This document shows positions 4,061 through 49,170 of a stretch of DNA of 64,000 nucleotides, piece by piece. Numbering within the stretch: position 1 is the first letter of the stretch; each line of letters starts with the position of its first letter. Made by a program: the position numbers and the translations under genes. This DNA is from Callorhinchus milii. Lineage: Eukaryota. Under the pieces are notes generated by a model. The model saw only the letters and a program-made list of their open reading frames with translations. It made no database searches and was not told the origin of the DNA. Location: contig NW_024704742.1 in the NCBI RefSeq assembly GCF_018977255.1, positions 120,096,001-120,160,000 on the forward strand, in the 5' to 3' direction.

Positions 4061-4935
4061 TCATGTGTTGAATATTTGCAAGCATTTTATCAACCCAGGT
4101 TTCGCTGAAAGACCCCGTAAGTTCGGGTTTCCTTCTATAGTTGCGCCTGGGGAAAGAGGTTGTAGCAAGTGACCTGGTAGCCTCATTATTTTTCTCGTCA
4201 TTACCTGATACAGGGTTAACCCAGTGGCTGAATGTGGAATTGACCTAAGTGCTATTAAGCACATTGGCAGCATTTGTATGTATCCATTGGGGTGATCTGC
4301 ACATTATTTTTTTAATAGCATTTTAATAGTTCAGTTCCTGCGCTCTACTACACCCGAGGATTGAGGGTGGAATGCAATGTGTAACTGCTGTTTTATTCCC
4401 ATAAATTTAGTGAGAGTATTGAAAACTTTAGTGGTGAAGTGACTTCGTTGATTGCTGTCAAGAACTATCGGTATTTCCCACCTGCAGATCACCTCACTCA
4501 ATAGTATTTGTGCCACTGTAATAGCTGTGGCAGCTCTGACAGGAAAGGCCTTGATCCATTTGGAAAATCTATCCAAAATAACCAAAGCATATTTGTAGTT
4601 GGCCGTTGTAAGGGGAAAGGGTCCAATGAAATCAATTTAAATATGTGTCCAGGGCCCTTCTGCCATTGGTGCAACTTTTAACAGAGCCCGCTTGGCAGGT
4701 GGACCGGGATTATGCTGTAAGCAAACCAGACAACGGTTAACGCGAGCGGTTATATCGTTATTGAGGGTGGGCCACCAGGTGGTGGTACGTATTTTAGATA
4801 TTGTCGAATTTACAGCCATATGTCCCCCGATTGGGTGAGAGTGGAATAATTGGAAGAAATCTTTCGCCATGTCGGGGGAACGCACACCATATCAGGTTCG
4901 TCCATGTCGTCCTGGTATAAGAGCATGGTAGTATT
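4061..4935 (-). pseudogene. pol: ERV-A integrase (disrupted)
   Basis: HSHPIGGH..CLVC zinc finger, PWTHI.IDFIGP, LDSNQRSHF, HPQSSGVVERRN. Confidence 0.9.
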
Positions 4936-4942
4936 TTTATCT

Positions 4943-5482
4943 TTATCGGCAGCTGTAAAAGTTTGATGAGCCCATGGAGTCGGAAGTTAACGGTCGACCA
5001 CTCAGATGCCATTCCCGGACAATCACGTATGGTGCGTAGGTGTTCTGTAGTGATTCGAGATCTAACTTGGAGTCAGTCGTAACTGTACAGCATTCCTCGG
5101 TCGCTGCAAAGGCTCCCCACAATGGGGCGTGGAGGGCGGAATCTCTAGCTGCAGCATCAGCCATTTTGTTACCTTCGTAGCGGGGTTCGGTGATGGAATG
5201 TGCTTTTACCTTGCCAACATGGAGGAGTAATTTGCGATTACTAAGGCAACTCCACAATTCGCGTAATAGAAGGTGGTGGGTTAATGTTCGGCCATCTGCA
5301 GAGGAAAAGTCGCGAGCTGCATACAGGGGTAGCATTCGAATCGTATTCACCACGTACGCGCTGTCGGACCAAATGTTGCATGGGTATGAAGATGTGCACT
5401 GCACGGCTTCCACCAGGACTGCGAGTTCGGCATGTTGAGCAGAGTGGGTTGTGCACGAGTATCCGAGTGTTTTATTGGGCAT
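4943..5482 (-). pseudogene. pol: ERV-A RNase H (N-terminus and tether deleted)
   Basis: HSAQHAEL, NIWSDSAYVVN, KVKAHS, GNKMADAAAR: retroviral type-I RNase H motifs. Confidence 0.9.
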
Positions 5483-5667
5483 TACGACAGCATGTGTTGG
5501 GGTGGGGACTGTCCATTATTTGAAAGGGTAATTCCTAGAAAATGGACGGATGGTTGTAGCAGCTGGGCTTTACGAGGATTGATTTTTAGTCCCGCAAATA
5601 GGAGTTTCTGTAAAACTGAATTTAAAAGTTCCAAGTGTTCTGTTTCATTGGCGAAAGTTAGTAATAC

Positions 5668-5732
5668 TGTTAGGATTTATATTTTATGTATAATGTTAGA
5701 ATCATGATAGATGTTGCGAACGGGTTAACTTT
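5668..5732 (+). repeat. 65-bp inverted copy of the start (U3 end) of the ERV-B LTR
   Basis: TGTTAGGATTTATATTTTATGTATAATGTTAGAATCATGATAGATGTTGCGAACGGGTTAACTTT is identical to the reverse complement of 12296-12360. Confidence 0.95.
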
Positions 5733-5734
5733 TA

Positions 5735-6155
5735 GGTAAGTAGTCCCCGAAAGTATACCCTACCGATTCCCACTGCTTCGAAAACCGCGAAAAGGAGGAG
5801 GTAGCGTTGTGATGAGAGCATTGCACGTGTGCTCTGTCTGTCGCATTCTGAGTTTGGTAAAAATACCAGAAGGCGGTTAAACTAGCGTTGCCGGGTACGA
5901 CCCTTAACGGTATTCCATGTTTGGTGGATGGTGGCACATGAGCACACACATAACAACTGGACACATGGTTAGTTTGTGCATGTCTATAGGTTGTAAATAG
6001 GAAAGTACTTTAGTGATTCCCATCAAAGTGGTTAGCATGGGAGTGAGTATGGGAGCCCCTGATTGGTAACATTAAGACGCCGAACACCATGTCTCCAGTA
6101 ATTCCATTCGGATCCATGCTGATACAGAAGATCCGGCGATCACTAGGTTGGTGCC
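5735..6155 (-). pseudogene. env: ERV-B env, N-terminal SU fragment (gamma-type CxxC), truncated
   Basis: Lies downstream of IN after splice acceptor TTTGTATTTTGCAG|G (about 6155). TFLFTTYRHAQTNHVSSCYVCAHVP..GIPL resembles the N-x-S-x-C-[WY]-V-C motif of gamma-type SU proteins. Confidence 0.7.
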
Positions 6156-6199
6156 TGCAAAATACAAATGTAGCATATATTCAGTCATCAGTTTATTCT

Positions 6200-9100
6200 T
6201 TCCCTTTCTTTACAGTTTTGAGTTGATTAACATGGTACCATTTAGTCGATTAAGAGGACAAAGGTGTGGCAATTAAATATACTGTCGGGCTTGCCTTCTC
6301 CAAAATTTCAAAAGGTTCTTTCCATCGCTGGGCAAAAGGAGATTCCTTTGTCCCATACACACGGACCATGACTTCATCTCCAATTTTATACTCCACATGG
6401 TTAACGGTAGCATCAAATTGTCGCTTCATGCTTTGTTTTGCCTTGCCAGTGTTTGTAGCCACAAACCTGTTGGTTTCCTGTATGACTTTAAGCACATCTT
6501 TCAGCCATGTCTCCTCTGCAGCTCCCTGCAATTTGACATTACCCTCTCGTTGTTCGAGGGCTTGGTTAGTCATCACCGCTGTACAACCTGGTAGCCTCAT
6601 TAAACGACCTGTCATAGCCTGATAGGGTGAAATGCCAGTAGTAGCATGTGGGGTGGAGCAAATTGCCATTAGACACAGTGGCAATCCCTTCATCCATTGC
6701 ATGGGGTGATCTGCACAAAATTTTGACAACAAGACTTTTAACGTTCGGTTACTTCTTTCTACTACCCCTGAGGATTGGGGATGGTATGGCACATGTAATT
6801 TGTGATCAATTTCCAACAATTCCATTATCTTGGTAAAAACTTTGCCCGTGAAATGTGATCCCCGATCACTATCCAATATACCAGGGATTCCCACCTGCAG
6901 ATCACCTCACCAACAATATGCGTGCAGCAGCGAGCGCGGTGTTGTTTTTAGTCGGGAAAGCTTCAATCCATTTTGTGAACTTATCAATTATAACTAAACA
7001 GTGTTTGTAACCACCGGCAACTGTGGACAATGGCCCAATGAAATCGATCTGAATATTGGTCCAAGGACCAGAGGGAGGGGGTGCACTCTGCAATAACGCT
7101 CGATTAGTAGATCGAGGGGGATTGTGCTGGAGGCACACGAGGCATGTCTTACATCGTTCCTGAACATCATGAGACAAACCAGGCCACCAGTCAGAGCGCA
7201 ACGACTTAGTGATGGTCTTTGAGGGACCAAAGTGACCACCAGTGGGATGCGAGTGGTATAACTGAAACATCGCATCGGCACATTCTGGGGGAATACAAAC
7301 AGTGGAGATATCATGCTTAGAATAAATGAGGACAGGGGAGGCCAGAGAGTCCAAAGGAACATACAAATGGGTATGCGCGATCCAATCATGTTGTGGCTGG
7401 GGAAGAATGTCAAGTCCAGCGAGTTGTTCCATGTGCCACTGGATCGCCTGGCCGTAAGGTGGGTATGAGTTCTGGAGTTTGATCAAATCAGTCAAGGAGG
7501 GAGAAGTTGAGATACTCATCACTGAGGCAGGGGGGGGAGAAATCCATGCTTCTCCATCAAGGGCGGACTGGCGGGCAACAACATCAGTATGATTGTTCCC
7601 TTGGGAGTGTGGCCCAGCTTTTGATGTCCTGCCACCTTACCAACAAACATCGGATGGGTGCGATGGAATATCTCATCAGCCAGACATCTCAGGAGCGATG
7701 AGTGAACCAACGCCTTACCTCCAGAGGTACAAACATTTCAGGAAGAGTACAGAGGTAGCAGTAATACAGTATTCACAACATAAGCACTGTCGGACCATAT
7801 GTTGGTAGCCACTTTGGTAGTCTGACGCACCGCCTCAACGAGTGCAGCCAACTCAGCATATTGAGCAGAGTGTGGTGTGCAGCGGAACCCAATGTCATGA
7901 TCAGGGAGGATAACGGAAAAAACGGTGAATGCCTTGCCGTCGATATGGTAGGAGGAGCCATCAATGTACACATCGGCGACAGACTGCAACGGGGAGGCCT
8001 CCAGCGGAGACTTGAGGATCCCAGTATCACTGAAGTTCAAGTACGGTAGAGGGCACTATGCGGGTCACCGTCATACAACATCATTTGGGGAATGAGGGTA
8101 GTTGGACCGGTAACTACCGATAAGTCAGCAGCAGCTTGGGTGAGAGCCCATTTAGTGAGTCTTTGCGAGGAGACGAGCGTATTGCCCGGTCGTTGTAGGA
8201 GTCAAACGGGGGTGTTCGGAGAGTGGAGAATAATCTTCTGGAGCCCAGTTATGTACTGAAAGGCGGTGACTGCCCAACACACGGCTAAGAGGTGACGCTC
8301 ACACGGGTCAAACTGTTGCTCCACACCAGTGAGAATGCGAGATATATATGCAATCGGGAGGTATCGACCTTCGGATAGCTGAGTCAGAACGGCTGCCAAT
8401 GCAGTGGGACCTCCGACAACCTCTAAGTGAAAAGGCTGATCAGGCTGGGGGTGCACCAAGGCAGCTGCCTGCATCACTGCTTGTTTAAGCTGAGACACGG
8501 CTTCTGTATGTTCATCTGTCAGTGTTCGCGGAGGTCATTGGGAATATCGCCTTTAAAGCGACAGCCGGAACACATATCCGTGCCTTCGTGGGGTTAAGTT
8601 TCAATCCGGCTTGGTGGAGTGCTTTCAGTACCAGTTCGAGGAGAGTTCGATGAGTTGCCTGAGTATCAGAAGTTATCAAAATATCATCAATATACTGGAG
8701 GATACTTGTACAATCGGAGGGAACAACATGACACAGTGCCTGAACCATACGTTTGTGGAATATGGTCGGAGAGTTATGGAAGTCTTGAGGCAGAACTGTC
8801 CAAGTGTACTGCTGACCGTTGAACGTAAATGCAAACTTATGCTGGTCCTCCGTTTTTATAGGAATGCTCCAAAATCTGTTTGAAATATCCAGGGTCGAGA
8901 ACCATTTAGCTATAGGTGGGATGTCCTTCATGAGCTGGCTCATGTCACTTACAACTGGGGCGCAGGCAGGTGTCATTTTATTAAGCTGCCGGTAATCAAT
9001 GGTTAACCGCCAAGAACCATCAGGTTTTTTAACGGGCCATATGGGGGAGTTGGTGGTGAATATCCCTTCACGAATCACTCCTTGTTCCTTTAAACTCTCA

Positions 9101-9781
9101 ATTGTGGCATGAACATAAGGTAAACTCTCTTAATAAACTCTCTTTGGGCAAAGGATATTGTTTACAGGGCTAGTGGGTGGGACCGTTAATCTCTTCAATT
9201 GTCGCTAGCCTTCCGCAATCGTGTTTGTGACTGGCTAGGAGGCCTGGAAATTGGGATAATAATGGACTAATCCAGGGGTGACTCGACTGAACTGGAGGGT
9301 ATGGGGTTGGCTTTTTAATAGCGCACACAGCATGCCGATCTAATATTTCACGGAATCGACCCTGACCAGGGCGTTGATCCAACCATAACCAATGATTAGT
9401 AAAATCGACCAGAGCGTTTCGTGAAGTTAATTCATCGCTACCAAGGATACCAGGTTCGGTGGGTAAATTTACAATGATTGGCTGTTGTAAAACAATTGTT
9501 GCAATAACGGTCAATTGGACAGGCAAAGGATGCAACACTTGGCCATACATAGAGCTACCAGACACGCCTGAAAATTCTAAACATTCGCCTGTGAGGGGAG
9601 GAAGGGGTTGATTATTCTCAAGCTTAATCAGTGTGGCCGTAGACCCTGAATCAACCAAAAGGGTATGAATGGTCCCGCACACCTTCATTGCTATAAACGG
9701 CCTTGGTCCCTCAGGTTTCCTGAAGGGAACGCATAACTGATTGTTCGTGCGACCGGTATCAGGGTGTGGGAACGAAACACG
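6200..9781 (-). pseudogene. pol: ERV-B pro-pol (frameshifted, internal deletion near 8560)
   Basis: Protease LVDSGS; RT NSPIWPVKKPDGSWRLTIDYR, LPQDFHNSP, QYIDD; tether (PIAYISR..ERHLLAV); RNase H YIDGSS/SAQYAEL/SDSAY; IN HHCC, QIDFIGP, DSDRGSHF, PQSSGVVER. Confidence 0.93.
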
Positions 9782-11399
9782 TCACTGAGGGCATGGCTGG
9801 TTCCCATCGACTATAGGCGAGACAGAACCGCCTCTGGATTCCTGATTAGAGCTAAGATGGGTCAAGATCTCTTGGGTTAAATCGCGTCTAAGATTCTTTT
9901 CCCATTGCTCATAGTTTTGCTGCTCTCGATCGGGTCTGGGATCAACATAAAAGTTCTGCTCTCTCTGTCCACGGGGTCTGCGTCCCATTTGACAGTCTGG
10001 GGCCCAATGCCCTCGTTTGCCACAAGTGTAGCAAATGTCCTTGGATCTATCACGAGGTCCCTGATTCCGTGGTGGCCCCCGGTTTGGACCATTATTCCGC
10101 GGTTTCCAAGGTTCTCGTCCCTCCACCTGACACACAATCTTTTCACTTTTAATAGTCTTCTGAATAGCCCCGTGACACCTCGTGACTGCTCCCGTCAACT
10201 GATGAAAGTGGGAGGCGGGGTCTGTGCCTAATCCCATAGCGGCGGAAGTACTCTTGCTCAATTTTCCTAACTAGCGTTTCTTGTATTTATCAGAACCCTC
10301 ACATTGTAGCTTATTGAAGGGGTTCTCCTGATTGAGATCTGTGCTCAACATTGCCTTAAGCACCTTAGCATAGTCTGGGGTTAAATCAAGGTTATCCTCT
10401 CTCTAATTAGCCCATTTCCTTACCCAAGGTTGCCATGGGGTTCCCTGAGTTAATTTGGATCCCAGCTGAGAACAATACGCTACCACGTCTCCTGGGCTCA
10501 GGGAGGTGACAGTTTCGTCTCTGCCCCCAACACACCCACTAGCGGTGGTGCGCTGCGAAATACTGACAGGACAAACACGACCCTTCACCAAGGGTGGCCC
10601 GTACCCTTCGTCCTCATGGTACTGAACCGCCTCTTCATCCAACTCTCCCCAATCTACATCATTGCCATCGGCATTTTGACAACCCCCAACTATCACAGGC
10701 TTAATGTCACATACCACCGCTACTAACGCTTGTCTCCGTCCTTTGTCTTCCTTCTCACCCTCTCTTCCCTTCCTTAGTTCTTCTAACTCCTCCTGTTCCT
10801 GCCTGCCTAATTCTTAACAACGCAAGGCAACTCAAATCATCATTTTCCTGTCTCAACCAGGCAATAATTTCCTTGTCTCGCAACTGTTCTTCCTTAAGTT
10901 CCTCGACCTCTTGAGATTTAGCAGCCGTTAGATTTAGAACAGCGCCTTGGTGATTATAAATTCCCTGCAAAGTTGTATATCTCTCGGTCACTTCTTTATT
11001 CGCACATTCCAGGTTCCTCCGCTCTAAGTCCCCGTGCTCCTTCTGAGCGTAGAAGTCCGCCTTATACTTCGCTACCTGTTCTCTTGCCTCCTCTCTCTCC
11101 CCCTCTAATCTCTCCTGTTCACGTTTCTTCTCATCCTGCCACATGCCTTTTTCCTCTCCTATCTGTTGGCAACTTACGACAGCCCAGTATTTTAACAAAA
11201 TTTTCTTCTTGCTATCACTCAACCTCCGCTAAGTGCCTAACTCTTCGATTTCTTCCACTAAAGGTTTATACCCTGTAGCGCCACCTGGTTGCGGAACATT
11301 CTCATCGTTCGCCCCCAACTTTAATTTCTGAACCCTCTTGATGAGCTTCCTTTCGAATTTCACAACCCAGTCATAACCAGCGGTATTTCCAGCGGCCAT
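9782..11399 (-). pseudogene. gag: ERV-B gag (stops and frameshifts)
   Basis: ATG at 11399 in frame with coiled-coil ORF 10755-11222; CYTCGKRGHWAPDC CCHC zinc knuckle in 9782-10261; lies between PBS and protease. Confidence 0.88.
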
Positions 11400-11450
11400 A
11401 GTCACAATTGAAACACAACAATATTCAATTACTATCGGTCCCGGTCCCTC

Positions 11451-11460
11451 TCCTTACCTG
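11451..11460 (-). promoter_or_regulatory. Putative major splice donor of ERV-B
   Basis: CAG|GTAAGG in the leader just upstream of the gag ATG; would pair with the env acceptor near 6155. Confidence 0.55.
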
Positions 11461-11808
11461 GAGGTAATAGGGGTTTCCTTCCCTCAGTTTGTACCGACTG
11501 TCCGAACGCCCGAAAGTTACCCTACCACTTACGCAATTTCCACATTGACACTCAATATATCAAAATATTCGAATGCCTTCAACACTCACCAGCGCACTTA
11601 GATGCCTGGTGCAATCGCCAGCGTACTCAAACGTTATCTAGTGTTCTATTAAAATTAATGATAACCGTTATCAAGGCTCGGTCACACTATTAACTCAGTG
11701 TACCACATGCAGCCTACTCAAATACTCAAACTTAACATTTATAGGTGAATCGTTAAAAACCTTCGTCAAGGCTTGATTGTACTCACTTTTATCCCACTTT
11801 CTTGAACG

Positions 11809-11826
11809 ATCCTGCCGACTACGCCA
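11809..11826 (-). promoter_or_regulatory. Primer binding site, tRNA-Ser
   Basis: TGGCGTAGTCGGCAGGAT, 3 nt after the LTR end ...TTTTAACA; complementary to the vertebrate tRNA-Ser 3' end ATCCTGCCGACTACGCCA. Confidence 0.9.
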
Positions 11827-11829
11827 AAT

Positions 11830-12360
11830 TGTTAAAATTTAATAATGCGAGTTTCAATCAAGCACAACTACTGTTTGCAACCAGAGTAGTGTTTATTAAA
11901 CTCAAGGATCCGTTCAAGTTCCCGATGGGCGTGGGCAAGTAAACACAATCACTCGATTCACTAGCAGAACAATACCACCGTGTAGCGAGCCTTCCTCGTG
12001 GTCGTCTGCTTCTGCCTTCTCGCTCTCAGTCTTCCATCCACGGTAGGTACTGTCCTGGGCGCGCCGATCTTGGTTTGGCACGGCGTTTTTAAGCTTGTGT
12101 CTTCCAATTATGGTGCAGACATTAGCTCACATGGCTTAAGTCACACTGGGTTCACGTGAACATCCCGTGGTGCGTACGTGCAGCAGCACACGTATTGTCC
12201 TTGAGATATTCACTTGATCGTGAGTTATCAATCATGAGTTTCAGTCCTGCCCCCGAGTTCCAGTGGTGGCGTCCAGTTGGCTCATACTTAACCTGAAAGT
12301 TAACCCGTTCGCAACATCTATCATGATTCTAACATTATACATAAAATATAAATCCTAACA
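11830..12360 (-). repeat. ERV-B 5' LTR (531 bp)
   Basis: TGTTAG...TTAACA termini, AATAAA at 11892-11897, TTAAAA TATA-like near 12087-12092, followed by PBS. Confidence 0.9.
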
Positions 12361-13477
12361 ATATGTCGTCGACGTATTGTAGTGGTGCCGGTTTTCCCGG
12401 CAGAGGACAATCTTTCAATATATCGCCCATTCGTTTATGAAAGATTGTAGGAGAGTTATGAAATCCCTGCGGGAGACATTGCCAAGTAAATTGCTGCCCA
12501 TCGAAAGTAAAGGCAAATTTAAATTGATCTTCTTCTCGGATGGGAATGCTCCAAAATCCATTGGAGATATCCAGTGTTGAAAAGAATTTTGCCCCGTGTG
12601 GAATGCGTGACAGTATTGTAGGTGCGTCACTTACAACGGGAGTGTACCCTGGGGTTACCAAATTTAATTTTCGATAATCAATTGTTAACCACCACGACCC
12701 GTCTGGTTTCCTCACTGGCCAAATAGGCGAATTTGTAGTAAAAGTGCCCTTACGTATAACTCCCTGGTCTAGTAATGATTGTACCGTGTCACGGACATAT
12801 GGGAGGCTTTCTTGCGGAATAGGATATTGTTTCGCTGGTGAATGGGTTGGACCATTTATTTCCTCTTCCCGATCCATTCTACCACAATCATATTTATGAC
12901 GAGCTACAACATCATCGTATTTAATCAGCAATTGTGCTACTTGTGCATTATCATGCTTGATTGGTTCATACATCTCAGGCTTTTTTATAGCCGTTATGGT
13001 GAACACATCAGACACAATATGGTGCCCATCACTATGGGTTAGTGCCCTGTTTTCGGTAACCCACAGGCATGAATTAGTGTAGTCCACTATCATGGTGTTT
13101 TTCTGGAGCACGTTGGATCCTAGGATACCGCGTTCCTCAGGCATGGCAATAGCAGCTGGCTGATCAATTTGGATGGTACTGTGTACCTCGTTTCCCAGGG
13201 TGATAGCAGTATTCACTAATCTCACTCCCTCTTGAGTGGAACTGTTAAATCCCGTGAGGGAAAACAACTCTCCAATTTCTCCAGGAAAATCTTTGGGACA
13301 TTTTGAATGGAACAATGTGATGTTAGACCCTGTGTCGACTAACATTGTTTGCGCTTCGCCCCCCGACAATGCAGTGGCTATAAAGGGTCTATTATCTAGT
13401 GTTCCATTAAAATTAATGGGGGTGGGATTCCCTTGAATGGAATTCACGGAAATTTGTGCGATCTTTGGGGCGCTGTC
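12361..13477 (-). pseudogene. pol: ERV-A protease and RT up to the YVDD motif
   Basis: LVDTGS, NSPIWPVRKPDGSW, LDISNGFWSIP, LPQGFHNSPTIF, QYVDDI; open frame, cut by ERV-B. Confidence 0.93.
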
Positions 13478-13653
13478 TCACATGTGGGATGAGGATGATT
13501 CAATAAGATTCACCTCTCCTCCGCGCGCGTGCGCGCGCGGGGGGGGGGGGGGAGATGCGCTGACCGAGTTTTTTTTATCATTTGTAACCTTCCAAGTGGT
13601 TATCATACCGGCTAATTGGTCAAAGGGAATCTCGGCTAGCTTATCCATGGATA

Positions 13654-16166
13654 CAACAACAACAAGATTCCATTTATAAAGCGCCTTTCACGTCAGGAGG
13701 ACGTCCCAAGGCGCTGCACAGTTGGGTCATGACCCGAGCAGGGGGGAAATGGTCAGGGTGAGGGGAGGGAAGGGAGGGAGCGAGGAGGGGGGAAATGGTC
13801 AGGGTGAGGGGAGGGAAGGGAGGGAGCGAGGAGGGGAAGAGAGTCGAGAGGGGAGCTGAAGGCACGGTCAAAGAGAAAGGTTTTGAGACCGGCCTTGAAG
13901 GAGGAAAGGGAGGAAGCAAGGCGAAGGCACTGGGGGATGGAGTTCCAGAGCCTCGGGGCTGAGAGGCTGAAGGCCCGACCACCGATGGTAGGGCGGTTGG
14001 GGCGGGGGACGTGGAGCAGACCGGAGCCAGAGGAACGGAGGGTACGGGCAGGTAGGTAGGGGGATAGTAGGTTGGAGAGGTAGGAGGGAGCAAGGCCGTG
14101 AATGGCCTTGTAGGTGAGGATGAGGATCTTGAAATCAATCCTCTGGGGGATGGGGAGCCAGTGGAGGCGAGCGAGGGTGGGAGTGATGTGGTCGCGAAGC
14201 CTGGTGCGGGACAGTACACGAGCTGCAGAGTTCTGAATGACCTGCAGCTTGTGGAGGGAGGTGGCGGGAAGGCCGGCGAGGAGAGAGTTCCCATAGTCCA
14301 GCCTTGAGGTGACAAAGGCGTGAACCAGGGTTTCAGCAGCGTGAGGGGTGAGGTAATGCCGTAGTCTGGCGATGTTCCGGAGGTGATGGAAGGCGGTGCC
14401 AGTTGTGGTGCGGATGTGAGGGAGAAAGGACAGCTCAGGGTCGAACAAAACGCCGAGGTTCCTGACTGGCTTTGAGAGGTGGAGAGTGCAGCCTTGGATG
14501 CTGATGGTGTCAGCGCCTGAGGTGCGGAGGCGCTGACGTGAGCCAATCAGGAGGGCCTCGGTTTTTCGCACGTTGAGCTGAAGAAAGTTGTCTCTCGTCC
14601 AGGACTCGATGTCGGACAGGCAGGCTGTCAGGACATCGGTGGTCGTGGAGTTGAGAGTAGAGGAGGAAAGGTAGAGTTGGGTGTCATCCGCATACATGTG
14701 GAAGTTAACTCCATGTCTGCGGATGATGTCACCGAGGGGGAGCATATAGAGGGTGAAGAGGAGGGGACCAAGGACAGAGCCCTGAGGGACACCACATGAG
14801 ACAGTGCGGGGGGTGGAGGAGAAGCCATTCGTCGAGACGAAGTGAAGACGGTGAGAAAGGTACGACCTAAACCATTCAAGGACAGTGCCTTGAAGGTTGA
14901 GGTGGGAGGACAAGCGGTGGAGTAGGATAGCGTGGTCGACCGTATCGAATGCTGCCGATAGGTCGAGGAGGACGAGGAGACAGAGGGAGCCCTGGTCACA
15001 GATGGTCAGGATATCATTGGTGACCTTGACCAGGGCAGTTTCTGTGCTATGGGCAGCACGGAAACCTGACTGAAGGGGTTCGAAAAGAGAATGGGTGGAA
15101 AGGAAAGAGCGCAGTTGGGAGGCGACAACTCTTTCCAAGACCTTGGAGAGAAAGGGGAGGTTGGAGATGGGCCGGTAGCTTGATAGCTGCGACGCATCAA
15201 GGGAGGGTTTTTTCAGGGTGGGCGTGATGATGGCAGTTTTTAATGGAATGGGGACAGAGCCAGAGGAGAGGGACAGGTTGATGATGTCAGTGATATGTGG
15301 GGCAAGAAAGTGGAGCTGGGAGATAAGGAGTGGAGTGGGGATGGGGTCAAGGGAGCAGGTGGTTGGTTTTAGGGATAGGATGAGTTCAGTGACAGAGGGT
15401 GGGGAAACGGGTACGAAGGTGTGTAGGGGAGGATGGGTAGGAGTCGGAGTGTGGGAGGGAAGGGGTGGGTGGTGGGTGGAAGTTGGAGGGGAAGTGACCG
15501 CGGAGCGGATTCCCTTGATCTTGGATTCAAGGAAATCCAGCATCTCCTCGCAGTGAAGGTTGGAGGAGATGACCTGCGCGGGGTGGCGGGGGGGACGGAG
15601 GAGTCGGGTTGTGGTGGAAAACAGTAGCCTGGGGTTGTTCTTCGCCTCCAGGATTATCCTGGAGTAGAAGGACGACTTGGCCGAGGCTAGAGTGGAGCGG
15701 TAAATTTTGAGGAGGTCCAGCCAGATTTGTCGGTGGACCGTTAGGCCAGATTTGACACAGGTGCGTTCAGCAGCCCGCACCTGGCTTTTCAGTGAGCGGA
15801 GGTGGGTGGTGTACCAGGGGGAGGAGCGGGAGTAGGAGACAGTGCGGGAAGTGATGGGGGCAAGAGTATCGAGTGTGGAGGAGAGGGTATTGTGGAGGAG
15901 GGAGAGAGGAGAAGAGGGGTCGGTGAGGGTTGAAGGCCAGAGGGAGAGGAGTTCAGAGGACTCCAAGGCATCGGTTAGGGATTGTGGGGGTAACTTCTTC
16001 CAAGGGCGGTAGAAGATGGTGGTGGGTCTGGTGGAGGTGGGGAGGGGGGTGGAGGTGGTGAAGGAGATGAAGTGGTGGTCAGAGATGGCCTTGTCGGTAA
16101 TAGTGACATCCGAGACACTGAGGCCCCGGGTGATCACCAAATCGAGTGGGTGGCCGTGACTGTGAC
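13654..16166 (-). mobile_element. L2 family A, 5'-truncated copy
   Basis: (AAC)n tail at about 13654-13665, 3' stem-loop, ORF2 from endonuclease C-terminus to end. Confidence 0.95.
13753..16140 (-). CDS. L2 ORF2 reverse transcriptase (open 795 aa, lacks most of the endonuclease)
   Basis: [61 protein letters not shown]. Confidence 0.9.
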
Positions 16167-16590
16167 TGGGTATTGCAGACTGTCTTTTGTCCTGGGGTTC
16201 ATTGGCCTTTTTACTCGGCCATTCTTTGGCCCAATGTACCTCTTCTTGACAGATGTGGCAATTGGACTAGTCTGTGTTTCCCCAAGGACCGGATTATCTC
16301 GTCCCGGACTGATTTTTATTTCGGTAATACAGCTGTCTTCTATTCTCGTAATTAGGGGGAAAACGCTCCTTATTTTTGCCCTCTCTCTGGCTCTTGGGTC
16401 CTTCTACCTCTTCAACCTGGACCACATTTTTCAACCCCACCTTGCTTTCTTCAAATTTGCCCTCTTTATGTCTTAGGTTATGATAATAGACACTGTCAGC
16501 GATCCTTATCACATTCTCCCGTTGCATGTCATCAGTTACCAATCCCACTGATTCAATTTCAGAGATGAGCTTCTGAAGGAATGCCTCCCG

Positions 16591-19192: not shown

Positions 19193-20827
19193 AAACCCGG
19201 AAAGTGATATTCTCACTAGGAATCGATAACCATAGTCGGGCAGCGAAAGACTGCAATTAAACAACTGCAGGCCTTAATAAAGAGAGCAAGGCTACGGTTC
19301 CCTAATGCTCAAATTCAGGTCACTGAAATTAATTTTAGTCAGAACCTGGATAGAAACAAAAGGGCCACATTACAGGAAATCAACACATTTATTGGGAATA
19401 AACGAGGGCATCCCGGCAATCCCAGTCAATCAGTTTAGAGTCGAAAAAGATAGAATCAACAAAATTCATTGGACTAAGGACACAGCCCAGACCATGATCA
19501 AACACTGGTCCAGGCATTTAAACTGAGAAGCACAGGAGCCGCAGAAAAGCGGGACCTGGTCTTGGGGACGAACATTGTGAACGTCTCCCAGGCACAGTAT
19601 CCAGACCAAGTAAGACCAGATGAAGCGCTGATAAAATGACTGAAACTGGGCCTCACCACAAACGGTTTTGAGTTTGATGGGGAATTCTACCTTCAAGTCA
19701 AGGGCACGGCGATGGGCAAAAAAGTTTGCCTCGGCCTATGCAAACATTTACATGGCGGAATGGGAGAATAATGTTCTCCAGAACTGCATCAAGCTCCCAA
19801 TTTCCTATCACGGGTACCTGGACAAAATATTTGGCGTATGGACACACACAGACATAGATTTCCAGGAATTTATGAACATATTAAACAACCACCACCCCTC
19901 TATTAAAGTAAAGGCAGTAACAGATAAATATAGGAAAAACTTCCTGGACACCACAGTGTACAAAAGGGAAGATGACAACCACAAACTAGGTACAAAAGTA
20001 TACTTTAAAGACACGGACACACATGCACTACTGCACCCAAAAAACTACCACCTGCAGCACACCTTCCGGGGCCTGATCGAGTCCCAACTAATACGGTTCA
20101 ACCGAATCTGCTTGAATCGGGAGGATTTTGAGAGGGCAACCACAACACTGTTTACAGCAGTTAGACAGAGGGGGTTACACTAAACGAGTCCTCAGGGGAA
20201 TCAAGTCCAATTTCCTTAGGTACCCCCATTGGCCCAAACAGAAGCTGAAAAATTATAGCACTTATAACCACATACTCAGACCACACAAGGCAGATTACCA
20301 GACGAGTGAAAGACATGTTTGAGGGACTAAAACTGGGGTCACCAGTTGGGGTGGGGGGGTGTGCGACTACAGAATTGTGTCGGCATATAGTAGGAATAGG
20401 AATATTAAAGATTGGTTAGTCAGCAGTAAATTGAAAAGTAAAATACTAAAAGCTGTGGGAAGACGCAATGTGGCATGTGTAGGTACCTAGCAAACCCCAA
20501 GAGGATAGATACTAACAGGACAGGGACGTCCGTAACAACAACCCACAAAATTAAATGCGACCAGCGTTTCACAGTCTATTCAATTAGATGCAAAAGATGC
20601 CATTTCTTATATATTGGGGAAACAGGAAATACACTACCACAAAGCTCACGGGCCAACCTCAGTGCCATTAAATATAGGGACAATCTAATAAACAAACATA
20701 GAACATGGGGAGGAATGAATAGAAGTCATGGGCCTGGACCATAGCACAGAGGAAAGAAAAAGAGAAGGATTGGATCAAGAAATCACGGACAGTAACACTG
20801 GAAGGATTAAATGCCCAGTAAAACAGA
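19190..20827 (+). mobile_element. Penelope-like element: esterase C-terminus, internally deleted RT, Cys linker, GIY-YIG endonuclease
   Basis: GTAMGKKFASAYANIYM, YLDKIFGVWTH, NFLDTTV, VYFKDTDTH; CGKTQCGMC linker; VYSIRCKRCHFLYIGETG. Confidence 0.9.
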
Positions 20828-21699: not shown

Positions 21700-22362
21700 T
21701 TAGGCCCCGGAAGGTGTGTTGCGGGTGGTAGCTTTTAGTGTGTAGTAGCGCGTGTGTGTGTCCATTTCCTTAAAGTATACTTTTGTACCTAGTTTGTGGT
21801 TGTCGTCTTCCCTTTTGTACACTGTGGTGTCCAGGAAGTTTATCCTATATTTATCTGTTACTGCCTTTACTTTAATGGATGGCTGGTTTAATATGTTCAT
21901 AAATTCCTGGAAATCTGTGTCTGTGTGTGTCCATACGTCAAATATGTTGTCTAGGTACCTGTGATAAGGAATTGGGAGCTTGGTGCAGTTCTGGAGAACA
22001 CTATTCTCCCATTCCGCCACGTAAATGTTTGCATAGGCCGGGGGCAAATTTTTTGTTCATTGCCGTGCCCTTCACCTATAGGTAGAAATCCCCATCAGTC
22101 GTTTCTGATGAGGCCGAGCTTCAGTAATTTTATCAGCGCTTCATCTGGTCTTACTGGGTCTGAATATTGTGCCAGGGTGTTTGTAATAGCCTGCAAGCCC
22201 CTCTCTGTCTCTGTTAGTGTACAGGCTTCTACATCCATCGTGAATAGTGTGGCATCGGCGGGGGCAGGGTGGATTTACGTGGTTCAAATCAGCTCCACAA
22301 AATGGTAGATGTCTTTAATATAACTGGGGTGTTTGTGCGATAGGGAGTTCAGGAAAGGATTT
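21700..22362 (-). mobile_element. Penelope-like RT fragment (3' side of a copy split by 22363-29105)
   Basis: AYANIYVAEWE, RYLDNIF, INFLDTTV; upstream SYIKD..HF and MDVEA.YTN motifs. Confidence 0.88.
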
Positions 22363-47247: not shown

Positions 47248-47364
47248 CTGGTGAAGCAACTCTGATGGTTGGCTCACTTCTATTCCTGTGTGACAGGTGA
47301 CGGAATCGCAGGGTCCATGTGCCTTGTCTTTTTGCTGCACTTGCCCTGGTCGCTCGTGCTCGTT

Positions 47365-47968
47365 CCGGTGTTGGCCTCTCGGGGTGCTGTTCTGGTGTTG
47401 GCCTCTCGGGGTGCTGTCCCGGTGTTGGCCTCTTGTGGTGCTGTTCCGGTGTTGGCCTCTCAGGGTGCTGTCTTGATGTCGTCCTCTCGGGGTGCTGTTC
47501 TGGTGTTGGCCTCTCGGGGTGCGGTCTTGATGTCGTCCTCTCGGGGTGCTGTCCCGGTGTCGGCCTCTCGGGGCGCTGTCCAGGTGTCGGCTTCTCGGGG
47601 AGCTGTCCCGGTGTCGGCCTCTCGGGGCGCTGTCCCGGTGTCGGCCTCTCGGGGCGCTGTCCCGGTGTCGGCCTCTCGGGGCGCTGTCCCGGTGTCGGCC
47701 TCTCGGGGCGCTGTCCCGGTGTCGGCCTCTCGGGGCGCTGTCCCGGTGTCGGCCTCTCGGGGCGCTGTCCCGGTGTCGGCCTCTCGGGGCGCTGTCCCGG
47801 TGTCGGCCTCTCGGGGCGCTGTCCCGGTGTCGGCCTCTCGGGGCGCTGTCCCGGTGTCGGCCTCTCGGGGTGCTGTCCCGGTGTCGGCCTCTCGGGGTGC
47901 TGTCCCGGTGTCGGCCTCTCGGGGCGCTGTCCCGGTGTCGGCCTCTCGGGGTGCGGCTGCTGTGTCGG
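47365..47968. repeat. 27-bp GC-rich minisatellite, about 22 copies
   Basis: Unit GGCCTCTCGGGGCGCTGTCCCGGTGTC; reads (TGTAPREAD)n on the minus strand. Confidence 0.95.
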
Positions 47969-49170
47969 TGTTCGCTCTCGCGCTCTCCTCTATAAGCCGC
48001 ACGGGCTCCTCAGTGAAAAGCCGAGCGCACAGAGTGTTACCAATAAGCAGCTTCGTCACCTGCGTCATCGCGTCACTGTATTTTCAGCTCAAGCTCACCG
48101 TGGCCACCAGCGTCAGGGTCTGGTGTCTGGGCGCAGTCCTGGTATTGGAATCTCGGAGTGTCTCTGGTAGCAAATGATACTCGTTTTGCGGTTTGTGGCC
48201 ACACGCTGCTGTTTGGCAACCTTTCAAACATTCAAAACCACAACTCTCCTTGTGGTTTATTACAGTAAACAAATCCACAATGTTTTGTGTCTTCTTTGGT
48301 TCGTGGGTCAAGCAAATAGCATACGATTGTCCAACTGTTCATGGCTTTCTTATTCCAAATGTAAATCGATCAATTATTACATTATTTTTCACCCACCATC
48401 TTTCCATTATAATAGTCATCATCACCTCCACTGGCATAAGAACATAAGAACATAAGAATTAGGAGTAGGAGTAGGCCATTCGGCCCTTCGTGCCTGCTCC
48501 GCCATTCAATAAGATCATGGCTGATCTTCTCACCTAACTCTGATTACCTGCCCTATCCCCATATCCCCTAATCCCTCTATTTTTCAAGAATCTATCAGTC
48601 TCAGCCTTGAAAATGTTCAAGGACTGAGCATCTACAGCCTACTGGGGTAGTGAATTCCATAAGTTCACTACCCTCTGAGTGAAGAAATGTTTCCTCAACT
48701 CTGTTCTAAGAGGCTGACCCTTAATTTTAAGACTGTGACCCCTGGTTATAGATTCTCCTACCAGGGGAAACAGTCCCTCAGTGTCTACTTTATCAGCCCT
48801 TTAAGAATCTTATAAGTTTCAATAAGATCTCCCCTAATTCTTCTGTACTCTAGAGAATACAGTCCTAGTTTATTCAGCCTATCCTCATAGGTCAGTCCCC
48901 TCAGCCCAGGAACTAACCGAGTGAATCTACGCTGCACCCCCTCTAGGGCAAGTATGTCCTTTTTTAAATAAGGAGACCAAAACTGCACACAATACTCTAG
49001 GTGCGGTCTCACCAAAGCCCTATACAGTTGCAGCAAGACTTCCCTACTCTTATATTCTAAACCGTTCGAAATGAACGCTAACATGCCATTCGCCTTCTTA
49101 GTTGCTTGCTGCACCTGCAAACTAACTTTTTGGGACTGGTGTACAAGACACCCAAATCCCTTTGAATACG

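Follow-up and report, generated by a model that had tools for sequence, protein, structure and literature searches.

A defective endogenous retrovirus of Callorhinchus milii with a U3 tip at both ends

Rearranged products of reverse transcription and integration have been described in several systems (the reports cited in this text were available in part, and what is said of each is limited to that part). [quoted passage not shown] In plants, template-switching products flanked by a target-site duplication (TSD) are known (PMC1950507). Here we describe ERV-B, a defective endogenous retrovirus (ERV) found in a 64,000-nucleotide stretch of the Callorhinchus milii genome (assembly GCF_018977255.1, contig NW_024704742.1, positions 120,096,001 to 120,160,000), which we call the window and whose numbering is used throughout. 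ERV-B begins with a complete 5' long terminal repeat (LTR), and where the 3' LTR would be expected it carries an inverted copy of the U3 tip of that same LTR. This U3/U3 end structure is real. The element is a lone dead copy nested in an older and likewise dead ERV, here called ERV-A, and shows no sign of function.

We compared the two ends of the element with each other and with the U3 starts of other family copies. A reading of the window made from the sequence alone (below, the sequence-only reading) had described a perfect 65-bp inverted repeat, and we found it at 5668-5732 and 12296-12360, flanked by ATAC and ATAT. The arms extend further, to 75 bp (5668-5742) and 76 bp (12285-12360), and differ by one substitution and one 1-bp indel. 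At arm position 66 the 3' arm has a T, as do 47 of the 48 other U3 starts. This indicates that the perfect match stops at 65 because the 5' LTR carries a private change and, therefore, that the next ten bases are U3, not env. The ~10-bp microhomology between env and U3 that had been proposed is thus lost, since these bases belong to U3 itself. Homology to the env of the four relatives that have this part of the gene extends to 5740, where the relatives go on with RGYY, which is missing here. Because the arm reaches 5742, the overlap between env and the inverted U3 amounts to ~3 bp.

Both arms carry variants that are missing from nearly all other copies, namely A at position 19 (T in 48 of 48 others) and G at position 7 (A in 47 of 48), which argues that both stem from ERV-B's own LTR lineage. 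The nearest other U3 copy differs from the arm at 3 of 65 positions. The possibility that the 65 bp are simply the normal U5 end of the family LTR was rejected, since in family LTRs the stretch that precedes the terminal TAACA is a different, T-rich one. The arms differ in 2 of 76 columns, compared with 1, 1, 2, 3, 4, 5, 7, and 12 in eight direct LTR pairs of the family. As this divergence falls within the range of ordinary LTR pairs, the arms appear to be as old as an insertion. Shared private variants and equal age point to both ends having come from one replication cycle. The repeats had earlier been described as identical in spite of a decayed body; their divergence is ordinary for the family. 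The chance of a perfect run of at least 65 within 76 is 0.25 at 2.5% divergence and 0.05 at 5%, and given these probabilities neither concerted evolution nor selection is needed to hold the arms identical.

The host site was analyzed by aligning the two flanks separately to uninterrupted relatives of ERV-A. In six out of six alignments the flanks overlap by exactly 4 bases (ATAT). The flanks are co-linear halves of one host reverse transcriptase (RT), in agreement with the clean rejoining of the host RT frame noted in the sequence-only reading. The inverted arm ends exactly at the TG...CA tip of the integrase attachment (att) site, at the junction with the host. Both ends could be read in 14 family copies; an exact 4-bp TSD is present in 10 of them, a TSD with one mismatch in 2, and no match in 2.

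We then searched public sequencing runs for support of the junctions. Thirteen runs were listed, of which four, all from one study, contained half of the stretch's words or more; the other nine were small or unlike libraries with little or nothing of it, and speak neither for nor against the structure. The U3/env junction near 5735, whose coverage by reads the sequence-only reading had treated as decisive, is crossed unchanged (0 differences) by a contig in each of the four runs. The host/arm junction is crossed in all four by a 76-base contig (46 + 30 letters, where the bridging rule is 31). The loose contig ends match the right flank and the continuation of the 5' LTR, and this is the sole read support for the 5' LTR side. 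No single run contig spans the whole of ERV-B. One of the four runs may be the source of the assembly, and the runs differ in their variants. In one of them, X4, a 68-base contig at about twice the single-copy depth hints at another copy or allele that shares 68 bases with the arm.

The structure was found at one locus. A search of 992 Mb of genome with the junction as query gave 516 candidates, and of 40 scored matches one covers the query over its full length. The env side of the junction likewise has a single match (1 of 1). An 18-base tag of the subfamily has three matches in the genome, two of which are ERV-B's own arms. All 14 other env-bearing copies terminate in a polypurine tract (PPT) followed by a direct LTR. 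We checked 47 stretches, corresponding to 45 distinct loci around matches to env, RT, and the primer-binding site (PBS), of 10 kb each except for two at contig ends. No U3/U3 arrangement was seen at the 45 other family loci, a check that covers a minority of the several hundred LTR candidates, and in at least 22 of the loci examined two U3 starts are arranged as direct repeats. A set of copies that share these ends but lie elsewhere in the genome, as in families bounded by terminal inverted repeats (TIRs) or resembling miniature inverted-repeat transposable elements, was not found. The genome searches also gave no subfamily copy with env; three candidate loci look like solo LTRs. The closest relative of the ERV-B LTR (88.5%) lies at locus L112 (G000:C3:74766400-74776399, 250-870; C3:74766649). 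There, the LTR is followed by only 13 PBS bases and then by an inverted, diverged R/U5-like piece, without internal genes.

We consider it probable that RT switched between strands of opposite polarity, giving a DNA with two U3 ends that was then inserted by integrase. The sequence-only reading had named an aberrant template switch leading to U3/U3 DNA as one of its options, and this option is the best supported, with the host-repair routes discussed below as its rivals. Briefly, a PPT-primed plus-strand DNA, ~75 nt long, would move onto genomic RNA in env, pairing by ~3 nt, and would then be extended as minus strand up to the PBS. The normal second transfer would be left to another plus-strand strong-stop DNA, this one of full length. 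The finished DNA would have a U3 att site at each end, and integrase would process both and join them 4 bp apart. An equivalent sub-route predicts the same sequence. Here, an elongating plus strand in env would switch to the displaced U3 strand and copy it to its end; in a variant of this sub-route, the switch would be made from a PPT brought close by an env deletion.

The minus-strand reading of the element is U3 1-75 in the plus sense, followed by antisense env, pol, gag, and PBS. A single jump, by either sub-route, yields an arm that stops exactly at the att tip together with a normal duplication. We looked for a hairpin pause at the switch point in U3 and found none (z = 0.67; 146 of 200 shuffles fold equally well). 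Since its 3' R, U3, and PPT are missing, the ERV-B copy would have been dead on arrival, as RNA without these parts is not reverse-transcribable by the normal route.

Several observations weigh against a polarity switch by RT. The target ATAT is its own reverse complement, as in 1 of 10 family TSDs, and a palindromic target lets an inverted copy that runs 4 bases into the flank mimic a TSD. The last 5 bases, and 9 of 11 positions, are the same in the U5 tip as in the inverted U3 tip, so that a template switch by the host would have had a convenient place to return. The TSD had been read as a sign that the element integrated with these ends. The 4-bp family length supports this, but the palindromic ATAT and the likeness of the two tips, both unremarked in the sequence-only reading, weaken it. 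The overlap with env is only ~3 nt, and compared with homologous switching, the non-homologous kind is reported to be rarer by a factor of at least 1000 (PMC3187697). A second U3/U3 case is missing among the 45 family loci, and with no subfamily copy with env found, the switch point rests on relatives that are 77-88% alike. Integration of two U3 ends in vivo was not found in the literature searched. From a single locus, the viral route and host repair cannot be told apart.

The rival that survives best, although we consider it unlikely, is one-ended integration followed by host repair. Integrase would have joined only the true U3 end. A host polymerase would have cut the free end back into env, started on U3 from a 3-nt pairing, and made a backward copy of the tip and of 4 flank bases before rejoining the chromosome at ATAT. 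In HIV-1 and avian sarcoma-leukosis virus (ASLV), one-ended integration often leaves a truncated end joined to viral sequence in either orientation (PMC5041404). A truncated end, appended viral DNA, and short homology are all present in ERV-B, the palindromic target permits a fake TSD, and one family locus, L061, resembles an event of this kind, as it has a 199-bp R/U5 piece in inverted orientation and 7 bases that recur in its flanks. However, the duplications at aberrant ends in PMC5041404 are usually irregular and often large, while that of ERV-B is exactly 4 bp, although its palindromic sequence could conceal a junction made by the host, and an inverted-U3 end is not listed in the supplementary tables of that report. 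The route also requires two switches and ~1.7 kb of trimming.

Quite unlikely, in our view, is that a normal provirus was altered after integration by deletion, inversion, and deletion, with loss of the 3' portion of env together with the greater part of the 3' LTR. A replication template switch would have read U3 1-75 in the backward direction and re-entered at the TAACA shared with the U5 tip, so that the original TSD stays. The 5 bases (9/11) common to the two tips fit such a return. The heptamer GGGGACT, which is the same as the PPT/U3 boundary and occurs at 2 sites in the 6,693 bp of the element, adjoins the switch point; it could mean an inversion in place beside the PPT after an env deletion, and env-deleted copies are common in the family. 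Nevertheless, GGGGAC-TAC aligns gap-free and in frame with the env of all four relatives that have this part (GYTFGDY vs GY[NS][FL]KEY), and among the family loci examined no env-deleted relative sharing the breakpoint of ERV-B was found. Two or three events are needed. A comparable 1.8-kb 3' region contains ~1,650 inverted 5-mer pairs, of which 136 reach at least 9/11. Just one of these ~136-1,650 comparable return points is the att pair, and a host event with two jumps is disfavored because so many other landing pairs were possible.

Two-donor integration appears improbable. The U3 ends of two viral DNAs would have been joined to the target by one intasome, and the DNAs fused by end-joining at a 3-bp microhomology. 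This is compatible with the exact att tips, the 4-bp TSD, the shared variants, and the 3-bp overlap, and intasomes form in vitro on separate oligonucleotides that mimic the ends (PMC13020977). However, one DNA must have been lost almost entirely and the other must have lost 1.7 kb, and no in vivo case was found in the literature searched.

It is very improbable that ERV-B belongs to a mobile, non-autonomous family bounded by TIRs, which was the other option of the sequence-only reading. TIRs and a TSD are present, but the junction is confined to one locus by the scored matches, the three tag matches, and the family loci checked; the other env-bearing copies all end in a PPT and a direct LTR, and there is no transposase. 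Retroviral integrase is not known to excise. An assembly artefact can be practically dismissed: the region is repeat-rich and no run contig covers the whole element, but contigs of all four runs cross the U3/env junction without differences and a 76-base contig crosses from host to arm, with loose ends that fit the right flank and the 5' LTR and with flanks that are co-linear halves of one host RT.

To characterize the gene content of ERV-B, we scanned 12 open reading frame pieces against Pfam and compared the element with its relatives. Matches were obtained for 10 of the 12 pieces, 3 of these 10 belonging to the host ERV-A, while two gag pieces remained unmatched. The 5' LTR, PBS, gag, pol, and start of env recognized in the sequence-only reading were confirmed by a 531-bp LTR, a PBS from 11826, Pfam domains, and env homology. 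The PBS is of a type that we take to be tRNA-Ser. Compared pairwise with three relatives, ERV-B has several 1-bp indels. It is without ~1.1-1.2 kb of env (including the transmembrane part), the PPT, and the 3' LTR that relatives carry. The coordinates are given in Table 1.

Table 1 Positions in the window of the features of ERV-B and of the host ERV-A.
Feature	Position	Strand	Remarks
ERV-B, defective ERV	5668..12360	-	6,693 bp; TG...CA at both ends, each end a U3 tip
5' LTR, complete	11830..12360	-	531 bp; AATAAA at 11897; terminates in TAACA
U3 tip of 5' LTR, partner of inverted arm	12285..12360	-	76 bp
PBS	11809..11826	-	starts 3 bp past U5 end
gag, several frames	9785..11228	-	zinc knuckle in 9785-10270; 2 upstream pieces without Pfam match
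pro-pol, in pieces	6253..9781	-	Pfam and comparison with relatives
Protease	9173-9781	-	Pfam
RT	8515-9129	-	Pfam
Tether RNase H	8205-8534	-	Pfam
RNase H	7741-8055	-	Pfam
Integrase	6253-7636	-	Pfam rve and Integrase_H2C2
env, 5' 450 bp	5740..6188	-	homology to env-bearing relatives
GGGGAC directly before switch point	5743..5748	-	in frame with env of relatives; equals end of family PPT
env/inverted-U3 overlap, 3 bp (switch point)	5740..5742	.	env homology limit vs U3 arm
Inverted U3 arm	5668..5742	+	75 bp, 97.4% identical to 5' LTR tip; first 65 bp perfect
TSD, left copy ATAC	5664..5667	.	one transition
TSD, right copy ATAT	12361..12364	.	palindromic
Host ERV-A: protease and first part of RT	12361..13477	-	interrupted just past YVDD motif
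Host ERV-A: remaining RT, RNase H, and integrase pieces	4334..5667	-	Pfam and flank alignment

Other rearranged copies were observed among the family loci. In L061 (G000:C5:281000-290999), the 5' LTR is replaced by an inverted R/U5 piece of the element's own 3' LTR (4784-4982 and 844-1042, 99.5% identical), which sits immediately ahead of the PBS. An identical sequence of 7 bases terminates the left flank and stands almost at the start of the right flank. This locus is possibly a mirror case with one normal U5 end and one host-made end. In L086 (G000:C2:123125900-123135899, 1147-2661), a U5 tail of 10 bases, the PBS, a leader, and a piece of gag precede a complete LTR that points the other way and is joined to gag by its U5 end, at or close to the CA. 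There is no TSD, and the locus resembles either an autointegration or a nested insertion that was followed by loss. At a dozen or more loci (L088, L092-L094, L096-L104, L106, L108, L110), we found a short, non-autonomous family derivative with the layout LTR, PBS, ~0.4-0.8 kb, PPT, LTR. The copies at L054-L056, L058, L059, L062, and L063 lack env from about codon 60-70 up to a point 50-100 bp ahead of the PPT. These deletions have a few shared breakpoints, which suggests a spread of env-less forms.

The remainder of the window is rich in other repeats. At least six near-identical (92-100%) copies resembling long interspersed nuclear elements were found at 13650-16270 and from 30560, 36590, 43250, 49160, and 57250 onwards, one of which has an open frame of 837 codons at 13753-16266. 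A tandem array with a 27-bp unit and ~30 copies occupies 47254-48090. Two RT-like pieces at 19675-20023 and 21755-22097 form an inverted pair (90-94%) ~2 kb apart, and judging by the protein text they are presumably Penelope-like.

The interest of ERV-B lies in its being the record of an error of reverse transcription or integration. If the polarity switch by RT is the correct reading, the locus documents, in the germline, that a retroviral integrase can do without a U5 end in vivo and that RT can switch between strands of opposite polarity and still yield integrable DNA. More tentatively, U3/U3 elements might form an undescribed, recurring class of LTR-element by-products, although we lean against this. 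An unfinished PPT-primed plus strand would then act as a tRNA-independent primer on RNA, and integrase would accept two U3 ends in vivo. Members of such a class would pass as TIR transposons in annotation, would be overlooked by LTR-pair finders and by provirus assays with primers in the 3' LTR, and could bring along whatever RNA the U3 strand lands on. Proviruses built like ERV-B fall into a blind spot, as neither direct-LTR-pair pipelines nor 3'-LTR-primed assays would see them.

We compared ERV-B with the systems that it resembles. The aberrant proviruses of PMC5041404, obtained from HIV-1 with integrase strand-transfer inhibitors or integrase mutants and from ASLV end mutants, also have one normal end and one truncated end that is joined to inverted viral sequence with short homology. 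ERV-B differs in that its second end is a perfect att tip and its duplication is of normal length. The defective proviruses of HIV-1 and HTLV-1 (PMC9278108, PMC13427564, PMC12657518) are likewise rearranged, and their rearrangements are mostly ascribed to reverse transcription. Unlike in ERV-B, the inversions are not described as terminal in the available text of these reports, asymmetric LTRs are deletions, and no U3 is reported at both ends; the primer-based methods of two of the studies may miss U3/U3 forms. A provirus with U3 at both ends was not found in the literature searched, which left out most subscription papers. For the LTR-retrotransposons described by Sabot and Schulman (PMC1950507), a TSD and near-identical outer ends argue for one reverse transcription and one integration, as in ERV-B. 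Those products have three direct LTRs with unchanged strand polarity, whereas one end of ERV-B is inverted.

DIRS-type retrotransposons (PMC7192593, PMC3950715) also have a retroelement body between inverted repeats. However, they encode a tyrosine recombinase and occur as families, whereas ERV-B has a DDE integrase (rve, Integrase_H2C2), a PBS, a TSD, and a single copy; a DIRS-type identity was rejected on account of the DDE integrase. Among solved structures, the best match of the ERV-B RT is foamy virus RT (E 2e-32, vs 7e-23 for RTs of the murine leukemia virus type), as a ranking by best hit. A protein search with the RT among phage records gave no match and has no bearing on its affinity. 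The foamy-like RT, two RNase H domains, and 4-bp TSD are shared with vertebrate ERVs of class III and of clades Tu and Huo (PMC8922424). In contrast to these, ERV-B has a Gag zinc knuckle and the env of its family is of the TLV_coat type. Lokiretroviruses are defined by an env resembling the fusion proteins of negative-strand RNA viruses (PMC8922424), and a Lokiretrovirus identity was set aside since the family env matches TLV_coat. Compared with the canonical provirus, ERV-B has a 5' LTR followed by a PBS, the order gag-pro-pol-env with retroviral domains, and TG...CA ends with a TSD of family length, with one TSD mismatch and a palindromic target. The PPT and direct 3' LTR, present in 14 of 14 other env-bearing copies, are absent. 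Its 75/76-bp terminal inverted repeats and 4-bp TSD are, formally, a feature of TIR elements. ERV-B is a defective provirus of unusual end structure, not a new mobile element.

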